A stretch of DNA of 64,000 nt from Cyanidioschyzon merolae (taxonomy: Eukaryota): NCBI GenBank assembly GCA_000091205.1, contig AP006485.2; one strand, 5' to 3'. The notes beneath the pieces were generated by a model. That model was not told where the DNA came from. It saw only the letters and a program-made list of their open reading frames with translations, and ran no database searches. Below are positions 1 through 64,000 of the stretch, piece by piece. The translations under genes and the position numbers were made by a program. Within the stretch, counting starts at the first letter, position 1; every line of letters begins with the position of its first letter.

Positions 1-1266
1 TTCGCACGTCCCAAAAACAAATGGTTTCATCGAACGATCCCGAGGCCAAAACATTACCCTGGGGATTAAAGTTGCAGCAGAAGACATAATTGGAGTGTCC
101 TTCGAAACGGTGCACGGCGACGCCCCGCTCCACATCCCAGAGCCGCAGCGTGCGATCATCGGACGCGGAGGCGAGCCAGCGCGACAGGCTCGCCGAACGA
201 CTCGCCCCGCTGCCAGCTGCTGCTGCTGCGGACGCTGCACCAGCCCAGGCTACGTCGCTGATGCCTTGCGCGTGTCCCTCGAGAACGCCCACTAGTCTGC
301 CATCTGCGACTGACCATAGCCGAACCGTCTTGTCTGCAGAAGAAGACGCCAACAGACGACCGTCAGGAGAGAACTTCACAGAGGAGATGGCCTTTCGGTG
401 ACCCTCGAGCGTGTACTGCAACACGAACTGCAAGTCAGGCGAGGTCTCCTGCTCTTTGCGAGCGCTTCCAGCAAACTCGTGCACAGGCGCACAGGTGCCC
501 TCACAGCACTCTGGTCCTCGCTCTACGCCGCTGGACATGATGCGGATTCTTGCAGTCACCGCCCCAGCTCACGGTTGCTTTCGAGAGCACCCAACCGTCT
601 CAATCAGAACGCTACCGCGCTACAGGCTGCTGCTCGGCCGGTGAACCGAAGCACCGCACCAGAAGACGTACAGCAGCAGCAGCAGCAGCAACTACTATTA
701 TCGACTACCAACCAATCAACCAACCACCAGCTGCTGGGCGTCCACAGTTCTTCGACACAGCGCGGACCTGTGGCGCTTGTTAAATAAAGTCCCTGTCAAC
801 GTTAGAAGCGTTCCCCTCGAAAGCCGCCTCTGGAATGATATGCAACGACGTCGTGTTGCCGTCGTATGGCGCCCTGTGAGGCGCGCACGGATATGTGTGC
901 AACGCATTGATCCGTGACGCGCACGCACGCACGCATGCGTGCGTGTATGCGTGCGTGCGCGATGTTGCCGCGTTGCCGCGTTGCCGCCGCCGCCGTCGTT
1001 GTCGGTGCCACGCGATGTGTGACACCGATCCGGGTAGCCCGTTCGGCATGCAGCCGATGGCGAATACGCCGTCGTTGTCTACCCCGCGAGCACCCAATGC
1101 TCTATGTGATCAGTGACACGATAAATGCGCTACGACCCTGACAGGTGTATATATCTATCGATGGACAGGCGCCTCTTGGTCTTGTTTGACCGACTTTGTG
1201 CTATCGGCTGCAGCTTCTCGTTGTGCACTTCGAGCATCAGAGGGTGCCTCACAACGTAGGTTCGCC

Positions 1267-1848
1267 TCAGCTTCGCGGGTCTCTGCTCTTCAGCACCACC
1301 CATCGTCCGATACTCATGGCGGTGTTTAAGTCTCTGTTCAAGAATTTCATAGGTTTATTGCCGCTGGGTGGTTTCAGCAATGCAAGGATTCCTAGTGGTC
1401 GCACGCTATGCGCTATTAGAGTCTCGTCGACGTCCTGTCGGGGAAACATCTTTTCTCGACTATCCCCCTTCTTCTTCTTCTCTTCAATGGTCATGAATCA
1501 TGGATAGTATGGAGGAAAGGAAAGCAGCTCTATCCCGATAGATTCGGCAAAAGCCTGGACGCATGGGGAATGGTGAGATGCAACGTTGTCCGGTAGAAGG
1601 ACGCCGCCATTCGTCAGATGATTCTTCAGTGATTCGATAACGTGGTTGGTGCTCTTGTATGAGCCTTCTCTACGACCCCAAGCTGAAGCCGCCAAATGAA
1701 TCCACTGCAGCTGGAACAGATGATGGTGTCCTCGTTCTCTTCGAATTCGATCCTGAATTCCACGGACGCCCTCTATGCCAGTACGCGTGAAAGCTCCGAC
1801 AATTTCGTCTGAAAAAAAAAAGTCCCTTGCACTCAGAAAAGGATTCAA
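1267..1848 (-). pseudogene. C-terminal fragment of a TnpB/Fanzor-like RuvC nuclease (copy 1). ORFs 1498-1848 and 1267-1494 are in the same frame, separated by one TGA.
   Basis: Minus-strand translation reads ...GIEGVRGIQDRIRR... (RuvC-II-like E followed by GVRG), then AFAESIGIELLSFPPYYP (matches the TnpB 'YKAEE-G-I-x-V-x-V-x-P-x-Y-TS' block), then an in-frame TGA at 1498-1500, then ...KPMKFLNRDLNTAMSIGRW (RuvC-III-like 'RD-N-A-x-NI'). DNA and protein homology to copy 2 (16025-16300) continues down to about 1200. It has no RuvC-I/N-terminal half and has a deletion where copy 2 keeps a Cys pair, so it is a decayed fragment. Confidence 0.6.
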
Positions 1849-2658
1849 AATCCTTGTGCATCATACCAATCGCTGAGTTCCAGGAACGAATTCGTTACTT
1901 TTTCGGTAGAAAATTGCTATGCATGAACTGGAACTATTTTTGCGAATGTATACCGCTGTTTTCAGGACAACCCGAACAAGCCATTAAGCAACAGAGACGC
2001 CTCTGGTGGCTAGGATCATTGCGTTTGCTTTCCATAGGGTCATCAACGCGCTTTTTTCTACCACAGTCCATAAGCAATCTCTAAATATATCGGGTTTTGG
2101 CACGGAATGCATATGCTTCCTTCTTTCAATATGTATGAACCATCTGAGTTCTAACGTATGACTGACCTGAAGGACGCATGCAATGCTCCCCGCACTTTTC
2201 AGTAAAGAATCTCTACCCTACATTCAATTCGTCTACGATATATGCAAAAAATGCCTAGTGATTCCGACCTCCCGCTACATACCGCGAAAACGCATTCCAA
2301 GAAATTCAGCAAGGGTGCAACACAATTGAGTTGAAAGACTATAAGGTGCAACGGGTGCACGCCCGGATACCCAGCGCCGCGGCACGGCCGATGCCTTACG
2401 TTGAGGCATTGCCTGCTGCGCAGTGCAACCTTATAGTTCGAGACTTCTGGTACTAGCTTTTTGCAGAAACTTGTCTGGGATACCATACACAAACAGATAA
2501 ACTTGGGACACGATTGCACCCGGCTGCGCGTCGTGCAGGAGCTCGAAAACGTGGTTGCAACGCCACCGCACGCTGAACCTGCGGAGCGTTCTTGGCGAAC
2601 AGGACGCGACTGGGAGTCCCATTTACTGTTGGCTGGATCAACGTGACTCACGCTTATC

Positions 2659-3612
2659 ATGAGCGCTCAAGAAGCGGTGCAACGACCGCTTCCTAACTAT
2701 CTGCAGTTCGTTTTCGGCGGACTGGCAGGCATGGGTGCGACGCTTCTGGTGCAGCCGTTCGACGTCGTGAAAACACGCATGCAGTTGACGCAATCAGTCC
2801 AAGGCGCTCAGGCTCCAGGTCCGCTGTACGTGCTCCGCGCGATTGTTGTCCAGGAGGGCGCCTCAAAACTCTATGCGGGCTTATCAGCGGGGCTGTTCCG
2901 CCAGATCACTTACACGACGACGCGTCTCGGGGTATACGGTGTTCTTCTCGAAGAACTCACCCGTATTCGAAAAGCCCAGCAGGCGAGCTCGGCTCACGAC
3001 GGCGAGTCCCAGCGGCAGGGCGTTGCACTGCCCTTCAGCTGGAAAGCTGGCGCTGGACTCACCGCTGGTACTATTGGAGCATTGGTCGGCACGCCTGCGG
3101 AGGTGGCGCTCATTCGGATGATGGCAGACGGACGACTGCCCCCAGAGCGACGACGAAACTATCGGTCTGTCTTCGATGCCCTGATTCGCATCGTACGCGA
3201 AGAAGGCATTATGACACTGTGGCGGGGAGCTTTGCCGACGGTAGGGCGCGCAGCGCTGCTCAATATGGCGCAACTCGGTACGTATTCCCAGGCGAAGGAG
3301 ATGATTTTGAGCACTGGGCTCGTTGGGGATCATCTCGGAACCCATGTCTTGGCATCGACGTGTAGCGGCTTTGCAGCTACGTGTATTTCCTTGCCTCTCG
3401 ATAACGCTAAGACGAAGCTGCAGCATATGCGGGATCGTGAGTACGCCGGAATGCTGGATGCGCTGTTGAAGACTTCACGTTCTGAGGGCATTCCTGCGCT
3501 TTGGAGGGGGTTCATGCCCTACTTTTTGCGTTTAACACCGCACACCATTGGAGCATTCGTCTTACTCGAGCAGTTGAAGAAGCTCTATTTTACGTGGCGC
3601 CAAGTGTTGTAG
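2659..3612 (+). CDS. Mitochondrial 2-oxoglutarate/malate carrier-like protein (SLC25 family)
   Basis: 317 aa with three mitochondrial-carrier repeats: PFDVVKTRMQL; LYAGLSAGLFRQITYTTTRLGVY; GTPAEVALIRMMADGRLPPERRRNYRSVFDALIRIVREEGIMTLWRG; LPLDNAKTKLQ; GFMPYFLRLTPHTIGAFVLLEQ. These blocks are near-identical in pattern to animal/fungal OGC (SLC25A11). Confidence 0.85.
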   Translation: MSAQEAVQRPLPNYLQFVFGGLAGMGATLLVQPFDVVKTRMQLTQSVQGAQAPGPLYVLRAIVVQEGASKLYAGLSAGLFRQITYTTTRLGVYGVLLEELTRIRKAQQASSAHDGESQRQGVALPFSWKAGAGLTAGTIGALVGTPAEVALIRMMADGRLPPERRRNYRSVFDALIRIVREEGIMTLWRGALPTVGRAALLNMAQLGTYSQAKEMILSTGLVGDHLGTHVLASTCSGFAATCISLPLDNAKTKLQHMRDREYAGMLDALLKTSRSEGIPALWRGFMPYFLRLTPHTIGAFVLLEQLKKLYFTWRQVL

Positions 3613-4448: not shown

Positions 4449-5684
4449 TCAGCGCTTGGTCGCATGCGCGGGTGCACCATTCCCCGCGGAGTCGGTCTGG
4501 TCGAGCGCCAGAGCGGCTCGTAGCATCTCGTGCAATGCATCTCCACCGTCAAGGACACTCTCTGCGTCACTGCAGGTGAGGCCCGTGCGCAAGTCTTTCA
4601 CCAAGGTAAACGGACTCAGAATATAGGAACGAACGAGGCGATCTGCACTGCCAAAGCCGGCGCTACCGCCGTGATGTGTCATTGACGCCTGTCGTTGCCT
4701 TCTTTCCTGCAGATAGCGCTCACGGAGTTTCGATCGGAGCACATATAGCGCTCGAGCCTTGTTCTGGTGCTGCGAACGCTCGCTCCGACAGGTTACCACG
4801 ATGCCACTCGGTCGATGGGTGATTCGCACTGCAGAGTCCGTCTTATTCACGTGTTGGCCACCGGCGCCCGAGGAGCGCATCGTCTCGATGAGCAAATCGT
4901 CGGGATGAATGTTGAGCGCTTGTAACGCTTCTGATGCGACTTCTTCTTCATCCAGTAGCGGTATGATCGACACACTTGCAAAGCTCGTGTGACGCCTCTG
5001 GGACGCGTCAAAAGGCGAATGACGAACCAGGCGGTGAATACCGGCCTCGCCACGGAGCCAAGCGGTAGCCCAGGCGAGTCCATCGGTGCCGCTGCGTACA
5101 AAGAGGGCAGCATAGCGAAGTCCGGCGACTTCACCCGGGCTCGAGTCCGTGAGCTTCACTTCTTGGAAACGCAGGGATCGACTCGCCGCCGCAGACTCTG
5201 CCCATCTCTGGTACATGCGAACGAGCATACTACACCAGTCCATGGCCTCAGTACCACCTGCACCTGCCCGGACCTCAACCAGGCAAGAGCGGTGGAGGTC
5301 GGAGGGTTCATCGGCGCTTTCGCTCCGCGTACTCGCCCCATGAAGAAGCGCCATTGCTTCAATTCGCTGCGATCTAAGACGCAGTGCCTCTATCTCATCA
5401 CGAAAGAGAGCACCAGAGTCCGTTGTCGCACTCCCTTCCTCTGAGCAGAGCGTCAAACAGGCCTGAACTTCTGCAGAAAGCGTATCGACTTCGGAAACGA
5501 GGCGCTGTAGCTCAGCTCTTTCGCGAAGCAGCAAAGCACCCTGCTTCGCAGCGCGGGCTGTACTCCAGGTGCCTGGTTGGAGGCATGCGTTTTCGAGCTC
5601 GCGTAGGCGACGAACCAACTGCGGATAGCGCAGGCGCTGACGAACGAGCGCTAAGGAGCGCTGTATGGCTTCTAGGTCCCGCAC
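4449..5684 (-). CDS. Class I peptide chain release factor, RF2 type (organellar)
   Basis: Has the GGQ peptidyl-hydrolase motif (SGAGGQHVNKTDSAVRITHRPSGIVVTCRSERSQHQNKARA) and the RF2-specific SPF codon-recognition tripeptide (SPFDASQRRHTSFASV). A nuclear-encoded bacterial-type RF implies mitochondrial or plastid targeting. The true N-terminus may lie upstream of the first ATG. Confidence 0.85.
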   Translation of the reverse strand: MRDLEAIQRSLALVRQRLRYPQLVRRLRELENACLQPGTWSTARAAKQGALLLRERAELQRLVSEVDTLSAEVQACLTLCSEEGSATTDSGALFRDEIEALRLRSQRIEAMALLHGASTRSESADEPSDLHRSCLVEVRAGAGGTEAMDWCSMLVRMYQRWAESAAASRSLRFQEVKLTDSSPGEVAGLRYAALFVRSGTDGLAWATAWLRGEAGIHRLVRHSPFDASQRRHTSFASVSIIPLLDEEEVASEALQALNIHPDDLLIETMRSSGAGGQHVNKTDSAVRITHRPSGIVVTCRSERSQHQNKARALYVLRSKLRERYLQERRQRQASMTHHGGSAGFGSADRLVRSYILSPFTLVKDLRTGLTCSDAESVLDGGDALHEMLRAALALDQTDSAGNGAPAHATKR

Positions 5685-8587
5685 CTCGACTGCTGAAGCG
5701 CAACGTGCGCGTCAAGCGCTGTATCACGAAAAAGAATCACAGCTTGATGCTTCAAAAAGAGGCGCCAACCGTCACCACGAAACGTAACCTGTTGTTTTTC
5801 CAACGCGGCATCCAGCGCGTGCGGTACAGTTCGACGCTGCCGAACGCTGTACGCGGAGCGTCAACGTGGACGTTCATGGAACTTGCGGAGAAAGCATTGG
5901 GAAACTCCAACTTTATCAGATTAGAATTGAGGCCTGAGCTCGTCTTTCTGTTCTTGTGTTGTAATTTTTTTCTTTACTTGTTCAGATGTACAGCGATGAG
6001 ATGCGAAATGCAGCAGGTAGGAGCGTGTAGATTCATGAGTAGTTTTCTGTCGATCGGTCGCCATTTTTTCGCGGAATGCCTCCTTTGACGCTGTACCGCT
6101 GGAATTTGTTACGTTACAGGGATCGAGGGGATTCACGACGCAATCGAATAAAGATTCGTAGAATATTCGATATAATGATCCGAGTCACTGGTTCAAGCTC
6201 CCACGCTTTAAAGTTCCGTACGTGAAGCACGCGTTAATCGTGCACTCTTCAACGCTTCAGTGTTGCTCTCTCACGGCACCCTAGGGGCGAAGCGATTCGT
6301 GTCGCTAGATTATCGAGCAATACCAGAACCCTGACGTCGTCCATGGACGACTCGTTCACAAACTCATGACCATTGCTCACGTCACTTGTCGCTTCGAATG
6401 GTCCATTGCATTCGAAAGACAAATGCTTGTCTCTTCGCGCTCATCGGCGAGACGGCATTCCAGAGCAGCAGGGTACCGTATGATGTGGTGCGCTGCTTGC
6501 GGGGCTCCCGCCTCTTCTGTTTGCTTGGGAAAGGATTCGGTACTAGAACTGGAGTCATCCGAGCGATCGATTCCAGTAGGGTGTGCGTCACCGTTTCGCA
6601 CGAAGGGAGCGTAGACAGACCGAAATTTCTTGACCCGTTTTCCAGCTTGGATCTTGTTTCTGGTAATTGTTCCATCGTCAATAACATTGCGTTTCGCAAA
6701 TCCGCTATCGAACGGAACTGCGTTCACTCTCGTATGCATCGAATAGTGTACTTGCCGAGGGGATTGCCACGCACAAGCCCCGTGATCGTGGGGTACAGTT
6801 GACGCTGCAAAAAAAAGGAGGCGTGCATGGAGCGTACCCTTCAGTAGCAGTCATGGACATGTACGGGGGCGTGAAGCAAGCGTTTCCACGCCCCAGCGCG
6901 GCGCACGGAGGAAATGAGGTGGATATAGAGGGACACACCTGACCATAACACGATATGACTGATGGAAAGGTCGCACAGCGCCTTTGTACAAACAAGCTCA
7001 ACAATGGAACAGCTACGTCGATCGCAATTTTTACTTACGTATTGACTGCGTCGACAACAGGTTGAAGCTGCAAAATCAGGATTTGCACACTGCCATAAAC
7101 ACCCTTCACCTGTTGACAAGTTAGCTCCCAGGAAAGCATTGAGCATCTTGTTCAAAGTCGGTATGGAAGAGGAAGCAGAAGCAGTCGCAAGAGAAACCCC
7201 ACCAAGACTATTATTGATGACAGTGCGAAGAGATCCAAACGTTATTCTTTGTGCCGTATTAGATGACTCGTTCCATTATATTCTGACGTGGGGGAACGCA
7301 GAGAGATTCGCATGAAGCTGCATCATGGTGAGCGCTGGCGAAAACACGGGACCAAGCATGACGCTATCCGCAGAGCGCCCCCGCTGCGCTGAAATACTAA
7401 CGCTTTGCTGTGTTCGTGCCGCGCTTGGATCTCCGGGGCGCCTTTGCAGTATAACGGCAGCAGAAACGCGTACGTCATGCACTGGGGACGCGCTCAGGTT
7501 GCTGGCGTCTGTTCAAAAGCTGGTTCTTAATCAACGTTCTTTGGTGTCAGCGTCTAACTGAAGCTAAACGCTGCGCTGGTGCAACTTGAGCGCTGCCAGT
7601 ATTTTTCTGGAAATCGTAAAAGCCATCACTCTCATTCAAATAAGCTAAAGAACGCTGTCCAACCAGAGCGAACGTCTCGTGGCGCTAGCGTACATCTGGG
7701 TTCGAGGTCAGAGCTCCGAACTACTGCTTGAACGAACTGGAAGTTTCTGTCGTAGGCGCCTGATGACGGCTCTCATTCGATTGCAACCGGGTGCCTAGGC
7801 GGTGACCTGGATTCAGTGTTTTGGTCCCTGAAAACGCCAGGGTCGCTCCAAAGGTAAGCAAAGATAGAGATCATTCACGTGCAATACATCGCCTCAATAG
7901 CGGATCCGATCCAGTGTTCCGCTCTCCAAGTCGCAAACGATAGAGGTGCAGTGACCCATCAGACTCCCTGCTGCAGAATGAACACACATACGCACATACA
8001 CAGACAAACAGCGCTGGACACGAGACTCATTCCATGTCGGAATCGATCGGAATGTGCTGTTTCCATTATTGGCGTCGGCGTTCTATGGTCAACCTCATTC
8101 AAAGACTCGTCTCTCTATGACGTGTCGTCATACAGCTCTACCACGGGCCGTTGCGGGTATCGAAGTTTTGACTTTGCATCGGCGACGAGGTGGTTTCAGG
8201 AAACAGGTCTCATTCGGACCGTCTCCAGCGAACGGCAGGTTTGACGCTTCCGCTTTACATCAAAAGAAATCAGACAGAGGCTAGCAGGTACGCCAAAGCA
8301 CGCACCTCAAGGCATACGCTGAGCGTGCTTATGAGGAACCACACTCGATGAACGGGTCAAAGACTAGTGCGCTCGGATGTACGCGTGTCCAGCCATGACG
8401 AATTTTCCGCCAGCAGATGCGTCCATCGACATGCTTCCGCCCAGCCGAGCAGGTCTCGTCGAGAAGCCGCCGTTCTGAGCACTACGCCTTGGATATGGCG
8501 AGCATCTGCCAGAGACCACGCTCATCAGCTGCCGAGAAACCATGGACATCATAAACAGAGGCTCGGTGCTGCGGTGAAACGAGAACG

Positions 8588-9980: not shown

Positions 9981-11507
9981 GTGCGCAGGGAGCGCCGGCC
10001 GGCAGGCAGCATATTCGCCCATCAGCGTTCGACAACGCCCGAGCACGTTGATTGCTTCTTCTGTGCGGTGTCTATGTTCGTGGAGCCGGAGTTTCTTTGC
10101 TCTGGTCGTATCTGGAGCTGGGATTCGGCGACAGCGTCAGTGGGAAGACCACGAAGCTGTTGCCGGTGGCTCACTTCACGGAAACAGAGCCAGTTCGAGG
10201 GTGTCGGTTGCCAGCCGTGTCGAACGCGGTCTCGTAGGGTGTTCCACGACTCGCGGTGCTGCTGCTGCTGCTGCTGGGCCGTGGGGTTGCGACCAGGCTA
10301 CCGAAAGTGGTCTGATCCGGATCGTCAGCACAGTGCTCGCCTCGAACGTCGTTTCGAGTTGGTTGCTGTTGTGGATAAGGACGCGGGTAGTTCGGAGCGT
10401 CCAGTACGCTGGAACCTCAGCGGTATTCCGCCACCACCGCCAGCCGCTCGCCAATGGATTGCGCAACCAAAACCATCAAGTGCTGAAAGCGACTACATCA
10501 ATCGGGCACCGCTCTTTTCTAAAGTACTTCGCACGCACTGTTTCGCGCTACCGTGGTCTGCTCTCGTGGAGCTGCGTGCGCGTGCCGCCGACGACATCGA
10601 CATCGACAACGCGGCACGCCTGGCAGCAACGGCTTCGACCAGTGTGCATGCTACCCTGTACCAGGGCAGTGTACCAACTGAGCCATATCCGCGGACTTTT
10701 ACAAGAAGCGGGCTCGTGTTGGAGGCCGGTAACGCCGGCACCCTCAAAAGGCGCCGAAACGCCCCGCAAGTGCCGGCACTGGTGACCGCGGAGCGCCAAC
10801 TGCCGCTTGGCGTGCTCATTGATCCTAACGCTGATGATCCTGCTATTGCAGTTTTCATAGCAGCTCGGCAACCGCGCTTTGGTAAGGAGCAAAATCGTCA
10901 AAAGCCGGCAGTGATCGCTGTAGCTGCGGTTGCCGCATCACCTCTTGGTATCGCGAATGGCGTCCTTGATGCTACCGTCGATGCACTCGTGGACATCGTT
11001 CGACGTCTGGATCCCTCGTTGCCGTCGACATCGGTTCATGAGCGAGCGATTCGAAGGTCTATGGTTGCAGCGATAGGGCCGAACCCTGCGACTGCAGATT
11101 ACGGGTTCGTCACGGTTCGTTCGGATGTGCTGAATGCGATCTTCTTGCCGTGGGAGGATCGCCCGCATGTCGGCCTGTCACGCCGCTGCTATTTCGTTCA
11201 CGATATTCAAAACGATGTGCATTCAGTGATCTGTCGGAGCCGACGTACGCGTCTATCCTTTACGTTTCTGGCGCAGCGTCTGACGGGGCGTCACCGGAGC
11301 CTGGCGAACCCGTTACCAGCGACAAGCGAGTCGCATGGTATCCAGTTCCCGTTGCAAGAGTGGTATCTTCGACTCGCGCCGCTTGTTTACGAACGATTGC
11401 GCTGCATTGGCGTTGGACAAGTTGAGCTGACGCGCGTGCTTTTGCCGCGCGTGCCGATCACATCTCGCGAGGATACGCGTCATTTTTCCTACATCGTTTT
11501 GGAGTGA
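9981..11507 (+). CDS. Hypothetical protein (frame choice uncertain)
   Basis: 508-aa ORF, the longest in a 1.5 kb stretch, but a 245-aa alternative frame (10048-10785) overlaps it and no motif was recognised. Called on length only. Confidence 0.25.
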   Translation: MRRERRPAGSIFAHQRSTTPEHVDCFFCAVSMFVEPEFLCSGRIWSWDSATASVGRPRSCCRWLTSRKQSQFEGVGCQPCRTRSRRVFHDSRCCCCCCWAVGLRPGYRKWSDPDRQHSARLERRFELVAVVDKDAGSSERPVRWNLSGIPPPPPAARQWIAQPKPSSAESDYINRAPLFSKVLRTHCFALPWSALVELRARAADDIDIDNAARLAATASTSVHATLYQGSVPTEPYPRTFTRSGLVLEAGNAGTLKRRRNAPQVPALVTAERQLPLGVLIDPNADDPAIAVFIAARQPRFGKEQNRQKPAVIAVAAVAASPLGIANGVLDATVDALVDIVRRLDPSLPSTSVHERAIRRSMVAAIGPNPATADYGFVTVRSDVLNAIFLPWEDRPHVGLSRRCYFVHDIQNDVHSVICRSRRTRLSFTFLAQRLTGRHRSLANPLPATSESHGIQFPLQEWYLRLAPLVYERLRCIGVGQVELTRVLLPRVPITSREDTRHFSYIVLE

Positions 11508-15875: not shown

Positions 15876-16024
15876 GCCGGCCACTGAAAACAAACGTCTT
15901 TCAAAAGAAAAACGTTGCCGCCAACGGTGTACAGTAGTGACGGGAAACGCGCCGTAAGCAAATCGTCTCCAGCTGAGGTGCAGACGCATCCCAGTCTTTT
16001 TCGACCGTCCACCTACTACGTCTT

Positions 16025-18149
16025 TCATTTTCTTCTCATATAATTCCACTTTGAGAGGTCGCCCCACAGGTTCTCTCGTGTCGAATCTGGAGGTCTTTTC
16101 TCCAGCACCGCACATCTCCTGATATTGATAGCGACATTAAAGTCTCGGTTCACAAACTCCATGCGTTTCTTGCCATCTTTGGTTGTACTTACTAATACAA
16201 GTAGCCCACGAACGTTCGCCCTCCTTTCCATTTGCTCCTCCGTCAGCGGTCCGTACTTTGCTATTTCGTCGGGGCTCCTCTGGCACTTTTCCATCTCGAT
16301 CCTTTGAAGTGTACAACACAGTTCATGGTGTGTATACGATGTTCGGAACTCATCTACAGGTATTGTAACTAACCGGTCTGCACACCCCTTGTACGTTCTT
16401 GTCGTTGGAGCTGGTGTACACTCTTTTTCAGACGCCTAGCGCCCTGCTCCGTATGCTACTACCAGCCTTTGACTTTCATCCTCTTTGAAGGCACTCAGCT
16501 GATTGAAAAAGTTCGCGAACGCACACTGCTTGCCAACGTATAGATTCATACGCAATCGAGACCACCGGGGCTTTGTATACTCTTTCCACAGTGCCTCCCA
16601 ATGACCAACGCGAACTTTCATGAACTCCCGAAAAGCTTGAAAGTCGGCTCCGCGGCTCGTCACCTCGCCCAAAGCTTCCAGGTGCTCTTTCATTCCTGCA
16701 TTCCATGTCTCGATTTCCTTCCACGCATTCTTTATACCGGATTCTCGATAGTATCTCGCTCTCGAGAACCTCAAAAGACGCATGTCTTTCTGAATGAAGT
16801 TGCCGTCTGGACCATCTTCCGCACGCCTGGGTACAGCGATGGCTGTGACATTCGTATTCCCAGGGTCCGCGCCCACGACAAAGTCGTTATACTTCCTTTT
16901 CTGTGTGGCACAATCCGCCTCCTTCTCATCTTCATACCTCGTCACGTCAACGACAACGTCGTCATCCTGCACTTCCTGTGTCGCAGGATCCGTCTCTTTG
17001 TTTTCTTCATGCTTCGTCATGGGCGAAGCCGAAGGCTCGATAGGACGATACGCCCTCAAGCGCTTGCAGTCTACACAAATGGATACTCCATCGGTTTCGA
17101 TCATCCCCGTGAATACCCTCTGCTTGCTAATTTTGAGACGTTTGAAACTGAAGATATTCTTCCAGTACGTCTCCCGGTTTTCACCGGAGAATTCCTCCCT
17201 GCTGGCATTGAACTCGGGACTGATCTACTTCATGATGCCGTAGACGACTCTGGAGCCGATATAAACAAAATGGGGCTGTATGTTCCATAACGGGATGACG
17301 TAGAAGCGCTTCACCATTAGGAAAGCCCTCGGTCTCTCGCGCTCTTCATTTTTTCCTCACTCAGCTTCATCTCCGTCTTGCGTTCGAGTTTTCGGTCCAG
17401 AAACACGAAATACCGCAGAATGAGGCGATAGTGTCTTTCCATATCTTTTTTCAACTCTGGTACCTTTTCTGCTGGATTCGCCAGCCCAAAAACTGCATGG
17501 TGCTCTTGTATTGCCGCACGGATTACAGAAGCTTCATTCGTGCTCCTGCGTGGCGCCTTCTTGTCACCAAATTCGACCTCATCTTCATGCTTACGATCAT
17601 TCGTGATGCCTTGAAAATCGCACATTTTCCATCGCGAGATAGACCCGGGTAGAGTGCAAACACGGCGCGTATCATGAAACGTTCGAGGTTCACTGTCAAA
17701 TGGTGTTTCAGGTCCGTGATTTACTTCATCGCCCCGTATATGTAGATATTTCCGTCACCGCTGTATCGATTACCCTCGAAGGGGAATTCCACGAAGATTT
17801 CGTGGAGAGCATGCACTAGCTCATTTTCCCTCCGCATACCCCCTGTACCAAGCATCAGTTGACGAATAAACGTCTTGTCGAAAAACTCGTCCGAAACCTC
17901 GACTCTTTCCATGTGCGTCACATCGCGATGCATCGCCCTCACCAAATGCATTAGCCCTGACGATGCGTTTATAATACTTTTGGAGTACGAATCGACACAT
18001 GGTCTCTGATAGCGTCTCGCAAATTTTGCTTGTACTGATCCTTGGTATGTCAAAGAAGACCAGCTTTCACCACCATCTCGTCGCACAGGTGTCTTTTTCG
18101 CCGCCTTCGACGTTGGACCTCCCCTTTCGGTCCTTTTTCTTCTCTTCAT
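16025..18149 (-). mobile_element. TnpB/Fanzor-like RuvC nuclease gene (copy 2, near full-length, about 700 codons). It is split into ORFs 17721-18149, 17317-17625 and 16436-17104 + 16025-16294; the last two share a frame and are separated by a single TAG.
   Basis: Going N to C on the minus strand, the coding sequence shows: a basic NLS-like N-terminus (MKRRKRTERGGPTSKAAKKTPVRR); a RuvC-I-like [21 protein letters not shown] ('G-x-D-P-G', the Fanzor-typical variant of TnpB GIDLG) with Asp at about 16853; the Fanzor/TnpB bridge-helix pattern [26 protein letters not shown] (compare R..L.r.h.K.an.r.d..hK); an in-frame TAG at 16436-16438; RTYKGCADRLVTIPVDEFRTSYTHHELCC (compare TnpB LeYKAee.G..V..VdP.yTSq.C..C); and a RuvC-III-like MEFVNRDFNVAINIRRC with Asp at about 16143. 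The frame changes twice upstream (near 17105-17316 and 17626-17720), by frameshifts or short introns. The gene sits between AT-rich flanks. Confidence 0.65.
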
Positions 18150-19930
18150 TTTCTTCTGGACTCGGTACTGTTTTTTATTTTTTTCTGGCAGCCTGCGACA
18201 CTGGGCCTCCAGGATTATGTACTTGCTTTTTCATAACTTTGCTTTTTTAGTTTTTTTAAGAAGAAAGCCCTTTGAACGCTTCTGGTACACACTGCGAAAA
18301 AATTTGAGTAGACTTGTTTGAAGTTTGAAACACAAATGCAACCGAAAAACTGTACTTGGCTATGAACTCAACGAAAATACAACTTTTACATCAGAGCGAC
18401 ACGCTAGAGATCAAGATCACGTTTCCAGTCATCGTCGGCGATATGCGTCATGTCTCAAGCCTGTCTGATCTCCCAGCTGCGCTCGCTGTGCGCGATGCGT
18501 GCACCGCGCGAGACGCCTCACCGATCGATGAAGGACACGTGTCCGACACCCCGCCGTGGCACATGCGTGTTCGCATCGCACTGCAGCTGAAATAAAGTCT
18601 CGTAGATCGGAAACTCACGTGGAACGATCTCTTGCTATAGGCTATGTCGCTGATGCACATCGCAGTACGGACCTGACATACAAGGAGATGCAGGGGCCTG
18701 GCACGATTGCCCGCGATGCTTCTATCAAAGGCGTAGTCACTGTAGCACCTTACGCTTGTGCGAGTGAGGTATGCATCACCCTACTGAATAGGAGTTTCGT
18801 TCGTTTTATTGATCGTGAAAAAACTGTGTGCCGTAGTCTTCCCGACTACGGATATACGTTTATTCCCGTTTCTTGCAGTCCATTCCGCTCAGACGCTGGA
18901 ATGAGAAACTGGTTTGAATTGTGTTTCTATCCGGCGCCAGGCCAGCAAGTGTCGAGCAACCCACCGCAAATTCGTTCTGATCGATGGAATGTGCTTACGG
19001 CTCAATGATCCGAGAATTCACGACGAGTACCGACACCCGGGAAATCTGCCGCCATTGCGCACCAGCTCTGCGATTTCCACCAGTCACATCGCGTGCCTCA
19101 TCTCCGACATTCTGCTTTTCCGACGTTCCATTGTGCCCTGCGACTGCCGTGAGCGTTCGAAACAGCGCCCAAACCGCTGGATCGGGCGTAGCACAGAGAC
19201 CGACAGACATACCCCCTACTGGATTGGAGCCGGGAGCCATCGCTCACACGTAGCACTGCTCATTGCCGATCTCATCTGAATACTCCGTGACCACATTATA
19301 GTGATGGAAAGCGGCAACGTCTAAGGCCAGTGAAGAAGAACGTGCAACGAATAGGTCGCAAAACGTGATTCCCCGCAGCATGCGATGTTGGACGATTAGA
19401 CAATTCTCGGCGATGTATAAGTGACTACATAACCGAGTCGTAGCCAGGGCTAATAGTACCGACAGCCCCGCTGCTTTTTTTCTATGAACAGCAGTTTGCC
19501 CCCGTTTTGAATTATCCATATACAAATCTACCAAGTCTACCGAATAAAGTCTCATAAATTGAGACGGCAAAATGCCCCTGGTGGAAGAAACTTTCTCGTT
19601 GCAGTGCGAAATCGATCGTGCGCTGTTCAAGGTGCTGCAGCTACAAGTAGTAGCCTGCCATCTTCTTCGTTCACTCGTGTCGCTTCACCGCAATTTGTAT
19701 CAACCGTTCGAAAACCTCTCATCCAGCGGCTTCTTTGGAGGTACGTCATGGATATCATCCGGGCTGAAATACATGAAAGACGGGACGCTCATGTAGAGAG
19801 CTTTTGAAACTTGCTGTGGTCGGTGCAAGTCGTTCAAGGAACGGACTACGAGAGGGGTACCTCATACGTCTGCTGTCCGCACTATGTCTGGTCTGGACAA
19901 GTAAAGGCGTTTTGCTCCGAAGCCAGCCAG

Positions 19931-26295: not shown

Positions 26296-29200
26296 GCGAG
26301 CAAGGCATGAGCTTCCCCACAGACGCGGCGATTTCGAACCATGGAATATCTTTATCGTTCAACGCCTGCCCGCGAGCACCGTTCCCAGTATGTATATTTG
26401 GCGGTCCAGTGTTTCTGAAATGCGGACTCCTACCATATCCATGACCTACTCTTAAGGGGAGTATCCAATCAATCGACGCTACCCCGGCGGATGAATGTTT
26501 TCACGACAGGAGTTTTCACGGGTTTCAGCATGATTCGCAGACTAAGCACGAAATCATATGTTAGGAGTTTCGCTCTGTACAAAACTGCTGGTCGCTCCGC
26601 ACGCACGAAACATCTCCAGATATTCATAGAGACTCCGATATTTCGGTGCAGAACGTGCTCGCACCTGTGGCTGCCAGTGGCATCATTCCAAAGCGTGCCT
26701 GTCATTGTCGATTGCCCCGTTATCTGAGGTTCAGTCAGCATCCGCTGTACCATGATGTGCTTCGGTCTCTGCTTCTCGCGCGTCTGCTTCGCTGTCCGCT
26801 TCACCGGGCACCCTGACTCGTGAAGCGCGTACGTCGACCCAGACGCATCGCTGGGAATCGTGCCGCATCCATGTGCATCCACAGTTGTACGCTCTCGTGG
26901 ATGGAGCAGGAGTGCAGCCTTGGCATGCTATAGCGCATCGATTGCTCTGTGGTATCACGAAACGACACGATACGAACGATCGAAGGTTTCCTTTCCCGTC
27001 GCATGAAAAGTGTTGGTGAATGCACGCTTGTCGCCTGGGTAGAACTGGAACCGGTGGCGACCCAGCGCTGTCTCATTGACTCTTGCCGGAGATCGTCCGT
27101 ATGCGCCATTTTGGACGTCTCGGGATGCTCTAGGTGAAGCATCCGAAGCACTGGTGTCGGCGCGAGACTGTACGCAGAGCGTCGAGCTGCAGGATGGGTG
27201 GCTAGGGGCTATGGCGCCTCTGCTGCATCTCCTGGTATGCCGCATGGCGTTTATGACGCTCGACTCTCGATGACGGTGCGCTCTGGGAAACTCGAGCCGC
27301 TTCATCTGCTTTCACCCAGGATGCAAGGCTCTGTCCTTTTGATCAATACCTATGGCGACGGGCACGACACGCCCACACAAGTAGGCATCCAAAGTCCTTC
27401 TCCAGTACTACCTCGAAGGGTGGAACGTGATTCTCGAGTTTCGATGTAGGCATAGGTTTCAAAAAGGGCATGCACAGGGATATGAGGTCGCTTTCGATTT
27501 TCGATGTAAGCATCTTTCCATTTCCTCCATGTACTCGATAAATCTTACACAAACTCCGCCGACGCTCTTCTGCCGAGTTGCTCGAATGCTTCGTAGTTGA
27601 TCGCAGAGACCAACCGGCGCTCTCTGTGGAAGCCATGCACGACATACTTCTCTTTCATGATGAAATGGGCTTTGCTGTTACGCATGGGGATCACGTCGAA
27701 TAGAAGCTTGCAGAGGCGAGCACGATTGGATTCGGAGGAAGGGTCTTTTGCAGACTGCCCTGTTCAGTACATTCTTGTGGCGCAAGATTTAAGTCTTGGT
27801 TGCATCACGTCTCAACCATCATACAGGCATGACGTCGATCGGTCCGAGTCAGAGAGCAGCACGATGAGCCTGGACGATCTAAGGTTGCATTCGCGCTCTT
27901 GCTGCTGCATCTCTTCCGAACTGGCTGGCAACTCGAGCTCGGTCGCTGCCAGCTCGTCGGTTGTCTTCATGGATATCAATTAGGAACCCGTTGGATCTGT
28001 TCCCAGTTTTCTGGACCAGTGAGGTTAGGGCACCAGGTTCCAGTTCGCGATTCATGAAGCAGTCGAGACTGATCTGCACGAGATGTTTAAGACTTATTTG
28101 GTACTTATCGGGTGCCGCGCTCCCGCGTACATTCGAATCAACGAAACGGAGCACCGATGCACCAAGATACCACCGGGAACCTGCACCCATATGTCTGATC
28201 CGAGAACCAGGCCGTGCTGCATCTTCTGTCCCGAATATCCGTTTTCTCTGGGTGCGAATATTTGATCGAAACATTCCCGAGGGATATGAATAGCTGGCAG
28301 CCCTGCGTCCCGAATGCTTACGACCATTTTTGCCCGACGAGAAGCGTGCAGCCGGCAGCAGCTCAACGAGACATCCACAAGTACGATTCCATGCGATCGT
28401 TCATGGCGCTCGACATCCTCGGTTATCATCGAAGCGAGCGGCTCGTCAATTGATCAGTACGCATCAAAATAGCGTTTGACACCAAAGGAGACGCCGCCGG
28501 CAATTATGACCTAGGAAGCACATGGTGGTACGGGTCGCAGCTCAACACCAATATCCGTTGTGTCATCTTGGAACGTTTTAGAGGAGTCCGAAAAGACGTT
28601 GTGCAAGAGCCGGAGAAGAGAATCTGGTGATTTCACGTATCGAAGTGTCCTTCGACATAGGATACGACGTTGAATGATCCTGTCGATCCAGCAGTTGCAG
28701 GTGAATGCTTCATGGTGTCGCCGCCAGCGCAAATGTTGTCGACATGCCCGCTGCCCTCTTGTCTACGAACTGCAGTCTGGCCCTTCTTTGATGATCCATG
28801 TACAAGTCTAGCATTTGTCCCAAATGAAATCACATCGAATGAGACGGTGATTCATCCGTCCCGTTCAAAGCGCTCGCGTATCAGTCCTCGGTCGATGGTG
28901 CACTGTTCATGATGCAGCGGTTTCGAGTAGTGGCGTGCCCTCTTCTTCTTTGCCTCGTATCTCTTCATCACCTTTCGTATCAACAGTACGTGAACTTGAT
29001 ATTCTGTGCCTTTATTGGCAGTGTTTCGTCGCGATCATGTAGAAACCGGATACTCCGTGATTGTGACAATCGTCTAGCTATATTCTCAAGAGTTCTCTCG
29101 GGGATACACGACATTCGGAATACGGACAACGGTATATACGGTTCGTCCAGGTGCTCGGCGTCGAGCAATGGACTTGTACATCCAAGACGATTTCTAGCAA

Positions 29201-30332
29201 GCTAATTGTGATAGTAGAAGACTGCTCGCGACTTTTCACCAATTTACAGGGTATATTCCCCTTTATTGGATACCTACGAGAGGAACAAATAGTTACACGT
29301 TTCGCGTACTGGTACAGAAATTCCAGAACTCAATGCTCCGCGTACCATACGATCCCGAGCAGAGCCCGACAGGTATCAAGAAGCTCAGACTCGACGTACT
29401 TCAAAGCGTGCGCCTTTCAAGAGGCTGCTGAGCATGACATCGAGGCGTCTGAGCACCACAATGCGCGCTGGTCGCCAAGCAAAAGCGCTGCGCTTCAGCG
29501 ACGCAGCACCTATGTTGCGTCGTTGCAAGCCAGCTACCCGCTGAGGCATTGCTTCGACATGCAAAGATTTCGATCGATCTGTACAACTGAGAAAACACGC
29601 AATCCATCGACGCGTGTCTTTTGGATGTGCTCGAAAACGTGCTCGTTCTTTTGCGAGTCGCAAATGAGTGCATCGATGCTCCAGCGCAGATTAGCACCCA
29701 TAACCGATAGTCATCCACTTGATCTAGTCGGATCGCGTGCACCTAACGGATACGCCATTTGAAGCATGCGCTGTGCGCGCTCTTCCATGCCGGCAGTTGC
29801 TGCGCGCTTTTATAGTAGGGCGGCTCGCGTGCACGGACACGGGGGCACTTGCGCGACACTCGGTACGCCTGGAAGCAACCCCTCTAGTGTCAACGTATAT
29901 CCCTGTGCGGAGTGTGCTTTCGTCGTGGCGCTTCTGGCGGGGCAAGCGCAGCGAATTCACGAGCTCGGGTCGTGTACAGGCGCCGCCTCGCGCACTTCAA
30001 ACGAAGCTTCGTGTTTGAACTTGTATGCATGTGCTGTCTCGGCGACGGAGACGATACTGCAACGCAGCAATCTGGCTTCACGAGGAGTTTCTTCGTGGCA
30101 TCCAGCGGAGTACTGAGTGGGCTTTGCGCTTCACTCGATGCACAGGGCATCAGTTCGCGTGCACACGCCCCTCAGCCTTCACATTCGAGCGTGCGTTTCA
30201 TCAACGACACGCGTTCAAGAAGTACCAATGCCCGTGTGCTGTGTAGATTTTCGCAAGGTTCAAACACGGAAATTCCGTGACGATTTCGACACTATTGTCC
30301 ACATGGCAAGCATACTGGCACTCTGCATGCTT

Positions 30333-63100: not shown

Positions 63101-64000
63101 ACCGTATTGTAGCGGGTACAAGACGCTCGCCTGAAGAGCAGCTCCATACCAGTCTCAGTCGCGTACTTGCTGGCCTTTTCTGAGCGATGTACAGCGATTT
63201 TGACCTTGTGCAGGACAGAGCAATACGACTGGGAGAATTTCCAAAATACCTCGACAAGTCATGAGGTATTGAACGACCCCGTCCTTTCGGCAATTTCTAG
63301 GCGACCGCACTTGACAGCATCAGCGCTGGGCCTGATGTCGTCGGAGAGCTCGCCTGCAACTTGGTAACGCATACAAAAGTGCGCTTATTTGAGTACCCGT
63401 ATTCGGGACTACCATTCCTCCCAAATCAAGTTTCTTCGAGTGAGATGCATACACGTCCATCCTGGAGCAAGCCTTCACCCTGTCGTATAAAATCGATGGT
63501 GGGTGGTTCAATGCGCGAGTCGCTCTCCCAGAGAAGCCCTCGTTTGTCTGCATCTATGCGGACCTTTTCATGGCCTGTTGTATTGAGGGCATTCAATTCA
63601 ACAGCTTGTATCCTCTATGGATGTATTTCTAGAAGACCGTGTAGAGTAGCACGGCTTCTCGCGGAGGCAGTCGTATCCATGTAGATTGACGTGTTCTGTT
63701 TCGGGTGCATGTTGCTCATGGTAACGATTACAAGAATTATGTCTGATGCACCTGCTTGTCATAGATCACCTGACTTGGACAATGGTAACCGTTTGTTACG
63801 CAGCCCAGCAGACACCTGCATCAATGCTCTCACCGCGGCTTGTCACCAGTCCATAGGATACACGGCGTTCGCTGAAGATCTGCAACAAGAATACACGAAT
63901 TAGACTACACTGGACCAATATTCCAGAATGCATCGCGCTGAGCATACCCGTCCATAGAGTGCAACAGCGCTGATGCGCACGAGGAGCCTCGATATCACCC

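Follow-up and report, generated by a model that had tools for sequence, protein, structure and literature searches.

Transposons of the Tc1/mariner type that carry a Fanzor1 gene have been described previously. These are PUl-1 and PUl-2 of Pythium ultimum and PGv-1 (Bao & Jurka 2013, Mob DNA 4:12; PMC3627910), and 'Mariner/Tc1' associations of Fanzor were reported as well by Jiang et al. 2023 (PMC10530073). The Fanzor1 element known from Cyanidioschyzon merolae is CMe-1A, which is present in ~150 copies. It is 3169 bp in size and encodes a 734-aa Fanzor1 and no transposase; its 5' 635 bp correspond to TE-N2_CMe. CMe-1A was called non-autonomous, of unknown class and without terminal inverted repeats (TIRs), and a DDE transposase partner was not mentioned (Bao & Jurka 2013, PMC3627910).

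Here we analyzed a locus near the beginning of a stretch of 64,000 nucleotides of C. merolae DNA (contig AP006485.2), referred to as the window. ORF 2659-3609 of the window matched C. merolae BAM79081.1 / XP_005535367.1 with full identity. An earlier note had read positions 1267-1848 as the decayed C-terminal half of a Fanzor/TnpB gene, related to another copy about 15 kb away (copy 2). According to our analysis the minus strand from ~1101 to 2345 is probably a dead, neutrally evolving ~1.24-kb copy, here named element A, of a ~1.5-kb DNA-transposon unit that occurs in Cyanidioschyzon and related Cyanidiales. Most of the locus is taken up by a broken Tc1/IS630-type transposase gene, and of a Fanzor no more than the last ~80 codons are present. 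The element is of a known kind and represents ordinary debris in the genome, left by an already described repeat family. The features are summarized in Table 1.

Table 1. Features of element A and its surroundings (positions of the window)
Feature	Position	Strand	Basis or remark
Element A, whole decayed copy	1101..2345	-	nhmmer DNA profile of the ~1.5-kb dispersed unit
Left-end motif TTATAGTCTTTCAACTCAATTGTGTTGCACCC	2313..2345	-	homology between copies begins here
Tc1/IS630-type (Pfam DDE_3, DD34E) transposase pseudogene	1483..2208	-	tblastn, family DDE HMM, Pfam
In-frame stop 1	1984..1986	-	within the transposase pseudogene
In-frame stop 2	1861..1863	-	within the transposase pseudogene
'TGIEGVRG'	1759..1782	-	aligns to GRNGRPVHGY, between first and second catalytic Asp of intact transposases
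In-frame TGA	1498..1500	-	Trp-to-stop in the PPY(S/A)PWFNPIE (PPYSPWFNPIE) motif
Private-deletion junction	1478..1483	-	profile positions 844-1134 (~290 bp) missing; gap in nhmmer coordinates
Fanzor1 (CMe-1 family) 3' tail, last ~80-100 codons	1157..1440	-	family HMM, BLASTP, DNA profile
3' terminal non-coding part of the unit (...ATTTATCGTGTCACTGATCAC)	1101..1156	-	homology between copies stops here

The two minus-strand ORFs described before (1498-1848 and 1267-1494), divided by an in-frame TGA, were confirmed. However, the TGA belongs to the transposase gene and not to a Fanzor, since the intact 294-aa transposase P0139 aligned to 2208-1483 in one frame and as a single HSP (tblastn, query 7-245, E 6e-23). 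The tryptophan replaced by this stop is kept in the homologues P0127, P0128, P0130, P0139 and P0144. The catalytic core spans ~1812-1483, and the family DDE HMM matched 1480-1812 with an E-value of 3.6e-29. On this copy alone Pfam DDE_3 reached 20.8 bits (E 3.7e-4; gathering cutoff 28.6), and the family consensus protein scored 82 bits (E 4.9e-23). A full HMMER search with ORF 1501-1860 returned 13 matches, and seven of the ten that were scanned exceeded the Pfam DDE_3 gathering score. For the consensus transposase 94 homologues were found, among them ~295-aa proteins with DDE_3 and HTH_Tnp_Tc3_2. The transposase further shared homology with the 'Mariner-like' enzyme that the Fanzor1 element PUl-1 encodes (E 1e-14 to 6e-22). 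In a word-indexed protein search the 193-aa conceptual protein matched nothing but its own locus in a strain with 99% identity, and PDB sequence searches with the consensus transposase and the locus gave nothing significant except a weak match to the SETMAR mariner transposase.

The gene resembles the IS630/Tc1 DD34E transposases (PF13358 DDE_3 and PF01498 HTH_Tnp_Tc3_2) in its HTH N-terminus, the order D, D, 34 residues, E, the PPYSPxxNPIE motif and the size of the ancestral protein of ~295 aa. The catalytic residues correspond to D 1809-1807 (FSDEIV), D 1590-1588 (LLPDNVASHH) and E 1485-1483 (FMTIE), the last two being separated by 34 residues; the triad is conceptual only in this copy because the ORF is broken. 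The HTH region (~2208-1930) could be aligned with its counterpart in P0139, P0144 and P0149. The consensus transposase matched HTH_Tnp_Tc3_2 weakly (E 0.004), and its homologues carry PF01498/PF13592. In contrast to these enzymes, the copy found here is a pseudogene with three in-frame stops, frameshifts and a deletion of the C-terminal ~55 codons. A locally better alternative frame was observed at 1679-1801. The stretch 'TLIAHSVR', considered as C-terminus of the transposase, was rejected, as the consensus places it in the frame of the Fanzor tail and the true C-terminus is deleted here.

The TGA had been regarded as the single lesion of the locus. This did not hold, since further stops at 1986-1984 and 1863-1861, a frameshift at ~1270-1288 and a ~290-bp deletion at ~1478-1483 are present as well. 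The stop at 1861-1863 accounts for the apparent start of the ORF near 1848-1860. By the ~290-bp loss the transposase codons (...NPIE) are brought into one frame with the sequence that precedes the Fanzor tail, and this chance fusion of two frames produced the long pseudo-ORF on which the first reading was based.

The Fanzor-like part is small. The Fanzor-family HMM (671 positions) matched 1261-1398 with positions 585-632 and, in another frame, 1157-1288 with positions 623-666, which places a frameshift near 1270-1288. Altogether only positions 585-666 of 671 are covered, corresponding to RuvC-III and the extreme C-terminus and not to a C-terminal half; Fanzor-like DNA makes up only one third of the interval 1267-1848. 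The RuvC-III motif NRDLNTAMSI is located at 1338-1309 (19.4 bits on the segment). Its similarity to copy 2 was upheld by BLASTP (19 of 42 residues identical, E 2e-9), by blastn (1287-1362 against 16099-16174, 72%, E 1e-5) and by a local DNA alignment of 1362-1166 with 16174-15981 (score 44, shuffles 12.4 +/- 1.4). In addition, the tail segment of the unit DNA profile matched copy 2 at 16235-15940 (E 3e-32). A similarity of roughly 300 bp had been claimed. We found ~200 bp in the pairwise comparison and ~300 bp when guided by the family alignment, spanning ~1130-1440 with an identity of 42-68% depending on the block; it does not extend over 1267-1848, and roughly half of it lies to the left of 1267. 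The NRD motif is thus not the only shared feature, since ~200-300 bp around and downstream of it are shared; the homology claimed upstream of the motif is absent.

These results also bear on the first interpretation, according to which 1267-1848 is the RuvC-II to RuvC-III half of a second Fanzor/TnpB gene that decayed independently of copy 2. The RuvC-III motif and the surrounding ~200-300 bp are truly homologous to copy 2, and the family is multi-copy (PMC3627910). However, 'IEGVRG' and 'AESIGIELLSFPPYYP', taken before as RuvC-II-like, are located within the DDE_3 transposase remnant, and the ORF carrying them (1501-1848) gave an E-value of 28 against copy 2 in BLASTP. With this ORF being a DDE_3 transposase, the interpretation is refuted for 1441-1848. 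The HMM did not align upstream of 1398, and neither the RuvC-II Glu (DE[FY]xTS) nor the RuvC-I Asp (DPGxxN) was found with it at the locus; copy 2 carries the latter as GADPGNTN. As the tail begins at profile position 585, the region of the C4 zinc finger with its Cys pairs is missing. RuvC-I, RuvC-II and the zinc-finger region are missing from all unit copies. The missing Cys pair had been noted correctly; its reading as independent decay fails because the deletion is common to the whole 1.5-kb unit family. A second half-gene that decayed on its own is therefore almost certainly not what this locus represents.

The assignment of the CMe-1 family to Fanzor1 follows the classification of Bao & Jurka 2013 (PMC3627910) and is tentatively backed by a modest hhalign match of the family to a Fanzor1 of Chlamydomonas, which extends from DPG... 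through ...DEFxTS (E 9.8e-5, probability 58%). Pfam gave no match on copy 2 and the intact Fanzor homologues, and PDB sequence searches with copy 2 and the Fanzor family profile returned nothing significant. An AlphaFold2 model of the intact family member P0014, built from an alignment of 20 sequences, was unusable (pLDDT 32.8).

To the outside, the element extends beyond the interval first described. A fragment end at ~1850 next to an AT-rich tract had been proposed, but the homology of the repeat family continues to 2345: a unit profile built from 6 other loci, with this window left out, matched 2345-1483 with positions 6-843 (nhmmer, E 2e-157) and 1478-1112 with positions 1135-1495 (E 2e-58). 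What appears as an A-run at 1811-1820 corresponds to a T-run inside the element, and its length is polymorphic between strains. The right end is placed between 1101 and 1113 with an uncertainty of ~10 bp. The order of the parts within the unit is left end, transposase gene, Fanzor 5'-UTR piece and Fanzor tail. The ~290-bp stretch deleted in element A is still present in L002 and L003; its loss was also found in L001, a strain variant of the same locus. No DNA similarity was detected between the left part of element A and the copies B and C of the window.

No TIRs were found in element A, neither by repeat finding nor by comparing the left end with the reverse-complemented right end, and in 6 other unit copies the scores were at the level of shuffled sequences. 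The left-end motif resembles the left TIR of contig L034, as judged by eye only. Target-site duplications (TSDs), which the earlier note had suggested looking for, were not detected at the ends of element A, and the flanks of 10 copies contained no consistent TA duplication, with the ends known only to ~+/- 10 bp.

Further copies were collected by an exact scan with a 19-mer from the transposase core, which biases the sample to copies containing the transposase. The scan yielded 21 matches, 20 genuine loci and one chance match (L016). In all 20 genuine loci a Fanzor tail was located 100-350 bp downstream on the same strand. The loci of the scan reduce to 6 further distinct copies with unrelated flanks (65-78% identical). 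Together with L027, L033 and the tail-only copy L013 12701-13054, at least 9 distinct unit loci besides element A exist in Cyanidiales-type metagenome contigs.

One could imagine that the arrangement is a local accident, in which an independent Tc1/IS630-like element inserted in or beside a CMe-1A copy and deletions left a chance chimera without a family of its own. Old repeats frequently contain nested insertions and deletions, and a private deletion of 290 bp is indeed present in this copy. Yet the order and orientation of transposase, Fanzor 5'-UTR piece and tail are repeated at no fewer than 8 other loci with unrelated flanks, the DNA of the unit copies is homologous from end to end, and intact elements hold both genes within one pair of TIRs. 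We regard such an accident as highly improbable.

Intact composite elements are represented by contig L034 (SRR32481250), which contains a 298-aa transposase and a 624-aa Fanzor1 (HMM E 3.6e-113) in the order TIR, transposase, complete Fanzor1, TIR. The TIRs are 34 bp long and located at the contig ends (score 16, shuffles 7.6 +/- 1.4). L035 (JGI 3300064472) is a similar intact two-gene element. In the window itself the long Fanzor copies B, C and D carry DDE_3 remnants upstream on the same strand; their spacing between transposase and Fanzor exceeds that of the unit and of L034 by ~0.9 kb, which indicates that more than one architecture exists. At the intact Fanzor loci L004 and L005 no DDE gene was found nearby.

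The relation to CMe-1A was determined by comparison with its consensus. Copy 2 is a CMe-1A copy, 83-87% identical to the consensus over positions 671-3169. The earlier view of the locus as a decayed Fanzor-derived piece of a multi-copy, formerly mobile family is confirmed to this extent, as copy 2 matches CMe-1A with its ~150 copies (PMC3627910). When the CMe-1A consensus was compared with the window by blastn, copy B was the only match. The unit is collinear with CMe-1A in three blocks, and ~360 of its ~1490 bp match. Positions 2-33 of the unit consensus correspond to CMe-1A 786-817 (81% identical, E 0.001), ~80 bp are homologous to CMe-1A 869-948 (5'-UTR and Fanzor start region), and positions 1185-1424 correspond to CMe-1A 2840-3083 (79% identical, E 4e-53). 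Within the unit CMe-1A position ~948 is joined to ~2740-2840. Both occur in the same genome, share the 3' ~300 bp, the ~80-bp start piece and the 32-bp left motif, and TIRs and TSDs were detected in neither; in contrast to CMe-1A, element A contains a gene for a transposase, and its Fanzor is reduced to the last ~12%. Judged from these alignments, the locus is a relative of CMe-1A and not one of its copies. A 10-mer from the 3' terminus of CMe-1A upstream of copy C was rejected as a chance match.

Since the intact relatives such as L034 enclose a transposase and a complete Fanzor1 within TIRs, the best interpretation of the unit is a derivative of such a transposon from which Fanzor was deleted. 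In the most likely history the parent would have been a ~3.3-kb transposon of the Tc1/mariner superfamily with a Fanzor1 passenger (TIR, transposase, Fanzor1, TIR), as in L034. An internal deletion of ~1.9 kb would have removed nearly the whole Fanzor ORF and left the transposase and both ends. The unit that remains consists of a left end, the complete but decayed gene of a ~295-aa HTH and DD34E (DDE_3) transposase, a ~80-bp piece homologous to the 5'-UTR and start of Fanzor1, the last ~100 codons of Fanzor1 and its 3' end. As transposase and both ends were kept, this derivative could still have moved, probably autonomously, and spread to many sites. Every unit copy would have decayed afterwards, with a further loss of ~290 bp in element A. 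Because TIRs and TA duplications were detected in none of the Cyanidiales-type unit copies, we infer mobilization by the unit's own transposase from the intact relatives.

This history is itself inferred, and two routes may be considered, deletion from a two-gene parent or recombination with CMe-1A. In the latter case the unit would have arisen by recombination or end capture involving a Tc1/IS630 element with transposase only and CMe-1A with Fanzor only, the two sharing ends because the former mobilizes CMe-1A. The 32-bp left motif, the 80-bp segment and the ~300-bp 3' part shared by unit and CMe-1A would fit a classic pair of an autonomous and a non-autonomous element. CMe-1A was described as non-autonomous, of unknown class and TIR-less (PMC3627910), and the intact Fanzor loci without transposase point in the same direction. 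However, two-gene elements with TIRs do exist (L034, L035), the piece spanning the region of the Fanzor start codon (CMe-1A 869-948) is most simply a deletion scar, and the shared left motif is internal in CMe-1A (position 786) and not terminal. We therefore consider the recombination origin unlikely and keep to the deletion from a two-gene parent.

Compared with the PUl-type elements, this arrangement has the same gene order on the same strand (5' transposase, 3' Fanzor1) and a homologous transposase. The PUl-type elements differ by clear TIRs of 24-33 bp and TA duplications, neither of which is seen in the C. merolae copies, and in element A the Fanzor ORF is lost. As in internally deleted class II transposons, the ends of the longer element were kept, internal coding sequence was lost and amplification followed. 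The retained Fanzor 3' region is also reminiscent of the stand-alone fRNA copies in Chlamydomonas (Jiang et al. 2023, PMC10530073). In contrast to both, the passenger Fanzor was removed here and the transposase was kept, so that the derivative was probably still autonomous, and unlike for the Chlamydomonas copies nothing pointed to an RNA product of the unit.

With three in-frame stops, frameshifts and the ~290-bp deletion, element A most probably has no present function. Compared with a 99.1% identical strain, the polymorphism of the element (10.4/kb) was close to that of intergenic DNA (9.6/kb), with 1.0/kb in the neighboring carrier gene. A codon-position test among the copies revealed no excess variability at third positions and hence no signal of past selection. 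As a separate observation, divergence was lower at unit positions 600-1000 than elsewhere in the unit, and no codon periodicity was seen; this counts against the preferred reading.

The retained tail raises the question of a non-coding role. The 3' end of the Fanzor/TnpB gene encodes the guide RNA, which continues into the right end of the transposon, ~20 extra stand-alone fRNA copies are present in Chlamydomonas (PMC10530073), and the tail is found in every unit copy. The tail and right end might accordingly owe their retention to a stand-alone guide RNA (omegaRNA / fRNA), or to some other functional non-coding element, that would serve the Fanzor1 of CMe-1A in trans. The structural tests were all negative: RNAalifold on 13 tails predicted no conserved structure (-8.6 kcal/mol, covariation term -0.34), the folding z-scores (-0.02 for this tail, -1.3 for copy 2) indicated no excess of stability, and Rfam gave no match. 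Furthermore, the tails are 33-50% diverged between copies, polymorphism is at the intergenic level, and the terminal hairpin of CMe-1A is missing from the short units. That the tail was kept for such a role is very improbable.

A related proposal goes further and takes the units as guide-bearing satellites that use the Fanzor1 of CMe-1A in trans for homing or retention, with the 1.5-kb element at the same time being the autonomous partner that moves the ~150 'unclassified' CMe-1A copies. The retained tail and right end would then represent a guide-RNA (omegaRNA / fRNA) gene, a recognition end for Fanzor, or both. If true, the units would be a eukaryotic counterpart of the guide-carrying non-autonomous derivatives of IS200/IS605. 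Taken jointly, we judge these assumptions very unlikely and prefer the dead, Fanzor-deleted transposon copy as explanation of the locus.

With this analysis the false lead of a second Fanzor half is removed, and the locus shows no sign of function. For the family as a whole, the 1.5-kb unit, the DDE remnants that precede three other Fanzor copies of the window and the intact two-gene elements with TIRs tie CMe-1 to a DD34E transposase of the Tc1/IS630 type. On the basis of these sequence comparisons, the CMe-1 family belongs with the known composites of Tc1/mariner and Fanzor1. Since the association of Fanzor with Tc1/mariner is already established in other taxa, the finding is incremental. 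Still, CMe-1 was previously unclassified, without TIRs or transposase (PMC3627910), and the link to a transposase is a modest positive result that provides a concrete candidate enzyme for the past movement of CMe-1 elements.

Element A, the window's copy of a dispersed repeat unit of about 1.5 kb, is located in a 2.1-kb intergenic region with a mitochondrial 2-oxoglutarate/malate carrier gene on one side (ORF 2659-3609, identical to BAM79081.1 / XP_005535367.1) and a divergently oriented WD40 gene on the other. The JGI metagenome contig L001 carried the same locus with 99.1% identity and is a strain variant of it. A GC/GT-rich palindromic repeat (gcacgcacgcacgcatgcgtgcgtgtatgcgtgcgtgcgc) was found at 919-960, immediately beyond the right end of element A; with 28 bits versus a gathering score of 100, its assignment to Rfam mir-3149 was rejected as no real family match.

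The minus strand has an ORF of 116 aa at 1498-1848 and one of 75 aa at 1267-1494, both in the same frame, with a TGA at 1498-1500 between them. The earlier note had assigned the interval 1267-1848 to a decayed Fanzor/TnpB-like copy. By homology, two thirds of it are instead a Tc1/IS630-type transposase pseudogene and not a Fanzor RuvC-II region. The transposase ORF matched the Pfam domain DDE_3 weakly (E 3.7e-4), and in a PDB search the mariner domain of SETMAR was weakly matched across the DNxxxH…PPYSP motif. A full HMMER search with ORF 1501-1860 covered 1.8 billion representatives and returned 13 matches; seven of the ten scanned passed the Pfam gathering score of DDE_3. The reconstructed consensus protein of the repeat family reached 82 bits on DDE_3 (E 4.9e-23). 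It had 94 homologues, many of them intact proteins of ~295 aa with DDE_3 and Tc3-type HTH domains. The transposase is also a homologue of the one, described as 'Mariner-like', that the Fanzor1 element PUl-1 of Pythium encodes.

Using P0139, a 294-aa homologue, tblastn aligned residues 7-245 to 2208-1483 in one frame (E 6e-23), with three in-frame stops (1986-1984, 1863-1861 and the TGA 1498-1500). The catalytic triad was discernible with DD34E spacing (D 1809-1807, D 1590-1588, E 1485-1483). TGIEGVRG, previously read as RuvC-II-like, lies between the first and second catalytic Asp, where it aligned with GRNGRPVHGY, and is part of the transposase. The TGA is present as noted earlier; however, it occupies the Trp position of the transposase motif PPYSPWFNPIE and is a lesion of the transposase. 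An extra weak DDE_3-like remnant (VIRAIDS…HEGS…NNIAF; family HMM positions 42-102, E 0.0026) was seen at 6554-6733 on the plus strand, with no Fanzor part nearby.

The Fanzor content of element A comprises, as judged from profile matches, RuvC-III and the extreme C-terminus only. A Fanzor-family HMM of 671 positions, made from 33 long homologues, matched solely with its C-terminal end (positions 585-632 at 1261-1398; positions 623-666 at 1157-1288 in another frame), with a frameshift near 1270-1288 and NRDLNTAMSI at 1338-1309 on the minus strand. On its left side the remnant reaches about 110 bp past 1267. Homology to copy 2, a long decayed Fanzor1 copy, is real but narrower and placed elsewhere than first described: family-guided alignment gave ~300 homologous bp, ~1130-1440 versus 15950-16250, with blockwise identities of 42-68%. 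Within this region blastn aligned 76 bp (1287-1362 versus 16099-16174, 72%, E 1e-5), a local DNA alignment of 1362-1166 with 16174-15981 scored 44 (shuffles 12.4 +/- 1.4), and BLASTP of the tail gave 19/42 identities (E 2e-9). The 116-aa ORF with 'IEGVRG' and 'AESIGIELLSFPPYYP' showed no similarity to copy 2 in BLASTP (E = 28).

Copy 2 had more than 240 homologues (60-78% identity) and matched positions 671-3169 of the published CMe-1A consensus with 83-87% identity. CMe-1A was described as a 3169-bp element of unknown class without terminal inverted repeats (TIRs), present in ~150 copies each ~80% identical to the consensus (Bao & Jurka 2013, PMC3627910). A multi-copy Fanzor family in C. merolae is therefore already in the literature. 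In hhalign, the CMe-1 family profile aligned with a Chlamydomonas Fanzor1 (E 9.8e-5); the alignment extends from DPG of RuvC-I to DEFxTS of RuvC-II.

In two contigs (L002, L003) a DDE homologue was followed closely downstream by a Fanzor tail, with DNA homology to the window over both parts. A conserved 19-mer, scanned against JGI metagenome contigs, yielded 21 loci, 20 of them genuine. In all 20 the tail (HMM range about 548/580 to 650/665) lay 100-350 bp past the DDE part on the same strand. These loci reduce to six additional distinct copies with unrelated flanks and 65-78% identity across 0.75-1.4 kb; three more were found in L027, L033 and, tail-only, L013 (12701-13054). Since this order recurs in distinct copies with unrelated flanks, it represents a repeat unit and not a local accident.

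A unit DNA profile built with the window left out matched 2345-1483 (profile 6-843, E 2e-157) and 1478-1112 (profile 1135-1495, E 2e-58). Element A thus spans ~1101-2345, well past the boundary proposed at ~1850, and the AT-rich tract there is a unit-internal T-run (A-run 1811-1820) whose length differs between strains. About 290 bp of the unit are missing. This private deletion removed the transposase C-terminus, and ...NPIE now reads straight into the frame of the Fanzor tail. A decayed, multi-copy Fanzor-derived remnant is present at this locus. The observation in the earlier note is partly confirmed and its interpretation partly supported; lesions and boundaries were misassigned.

Neither TIRs nor target-site duplications were detectable in element A or other copies of the short unit, in agreement with the published description of CMe-1A. 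A similar motif is found at both unit ends in direct, not inverted, orientation (left …TTGTGTTGCACCC…, 2313-2345; right …TCGTGTCACTGATCAC…, 1104-1125) and at equivalent positions in other copies; a terminal TGATCA(C/T)C occurs in several independent copies. L027, from the same sample series as the C. merolae-like L001, carried a near-full-length unit copy (4769-6302) with an almost uninterrupted 234-aa transposase pseudo-ORF (P0141) and, ~4 kb away, a copy of the CMe-1A 5' (TE-N2_CMe) part (10396-10704).

Coordinates of Fanzor copies, collinear blocks and genes of the two-gene relative
Feature	Position	Strand	Details
Copy 2	about 15895-18470	minus	
Decayed Fanzor copy B	15895 to about 20060	minus	DDE_3 remnant 19208-19565; matches CMe-1A 671-3169 at 83-87%
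Decayed Fanzor copy C	about 26560-29350	minus	DDE_3 remnant 28472-29038
Decayed Fanzor copy D	about 60800-63930	minus	DDE_3 remnant 63085-63512
Block 1	unit 2-33		CMe-1A 786-817
Block 2	unit 987-1070		CMe-1A 869-948, spans Fanzor start codon
Block 3	unit 1185-1424		CMe-1A 2840-3083
L034 transposase	L034:102-998		298 aa, DDE_3/HTH
L034 Fanzor1, CMe-1-like	L034:1222-3096		624 aa, family HMM E 3.6e-113

Three blocks of the unit consensus were collinear with CMe-1A, with the transposase gene positioned between blocks 1 and 2 and ~1.9 kb of Fanzor ORF absent between blocks 2 and 3. Recombination of a transposase-only element with CMe-1A could have given rise to the unit, which we consider improbable. 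Contig L034 (Logan SRR32481250, 3384 bp) carries a transposase gene and a Fanzor1 gene with all three RuvC motifs (DPGG, VDEFRTT, NRDLNAAINI), as well as ~34-bp imperfect TIRs at its extreme ends (score 16 versus shuffles 7.6 +/- 1.4); over positions 1-3384 it looks like an intact two-gene transposon. L035 (JGI 3300064472) resembled it, with a frameshifted Fanzor C-terminus, and both presumably represent the parent architecture. We favour an origin in which a Tc1/mariner-superfamily transposon carrying Fanzor1 would have lost the Fanzor by deletion, leaving the unit. Copies B, C and D were mutually collinear across ~4 kb. Each is preceded, on its own strand, by DDE_3 remnants at a distance of 0.7-1.6 kb; this architecture exceeds both CMe-1A and the 1.5-kb unit in length.

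Polymorphism, codon-position and RNA-structure tests gave no evidence for a present function of element A. In the comparison of the window with L001, the element showed a polymorphism of 10.4/kb; the value was 9.6/kb for the intergenic DNA next to it and 1.0/kb for the carrier gene. Divergence among copies had no third-position excess. Retention of the tail as a guide-RNA gene is very unlikely: RNAalifold on 13 tails gave -8.6 kcal/mol and a covariation term of -0.34, folding z-scores were -0.02 (element A tail) and -1.3 (copy 2), and Rfam had no match for the tail. Among seven distinct copies, unit consensus 600-1000 (window about 1745-1483 plus part deleted from element A) had a mean pairwise divergence of 0.22-0.31 versus 0.40-0.50 elsewhere in the unit, with no codon-position periodicity; the fishing 19-mer accounts for just 19 of these low-divergence columns.

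A link of the C. merolae Fanzor1 elements to a DD34E transposase is unreported in the 2013 description (Bao & Jurka 2013, PMC3627910). The increment over that work is that these elements are now tied to such a transposase.
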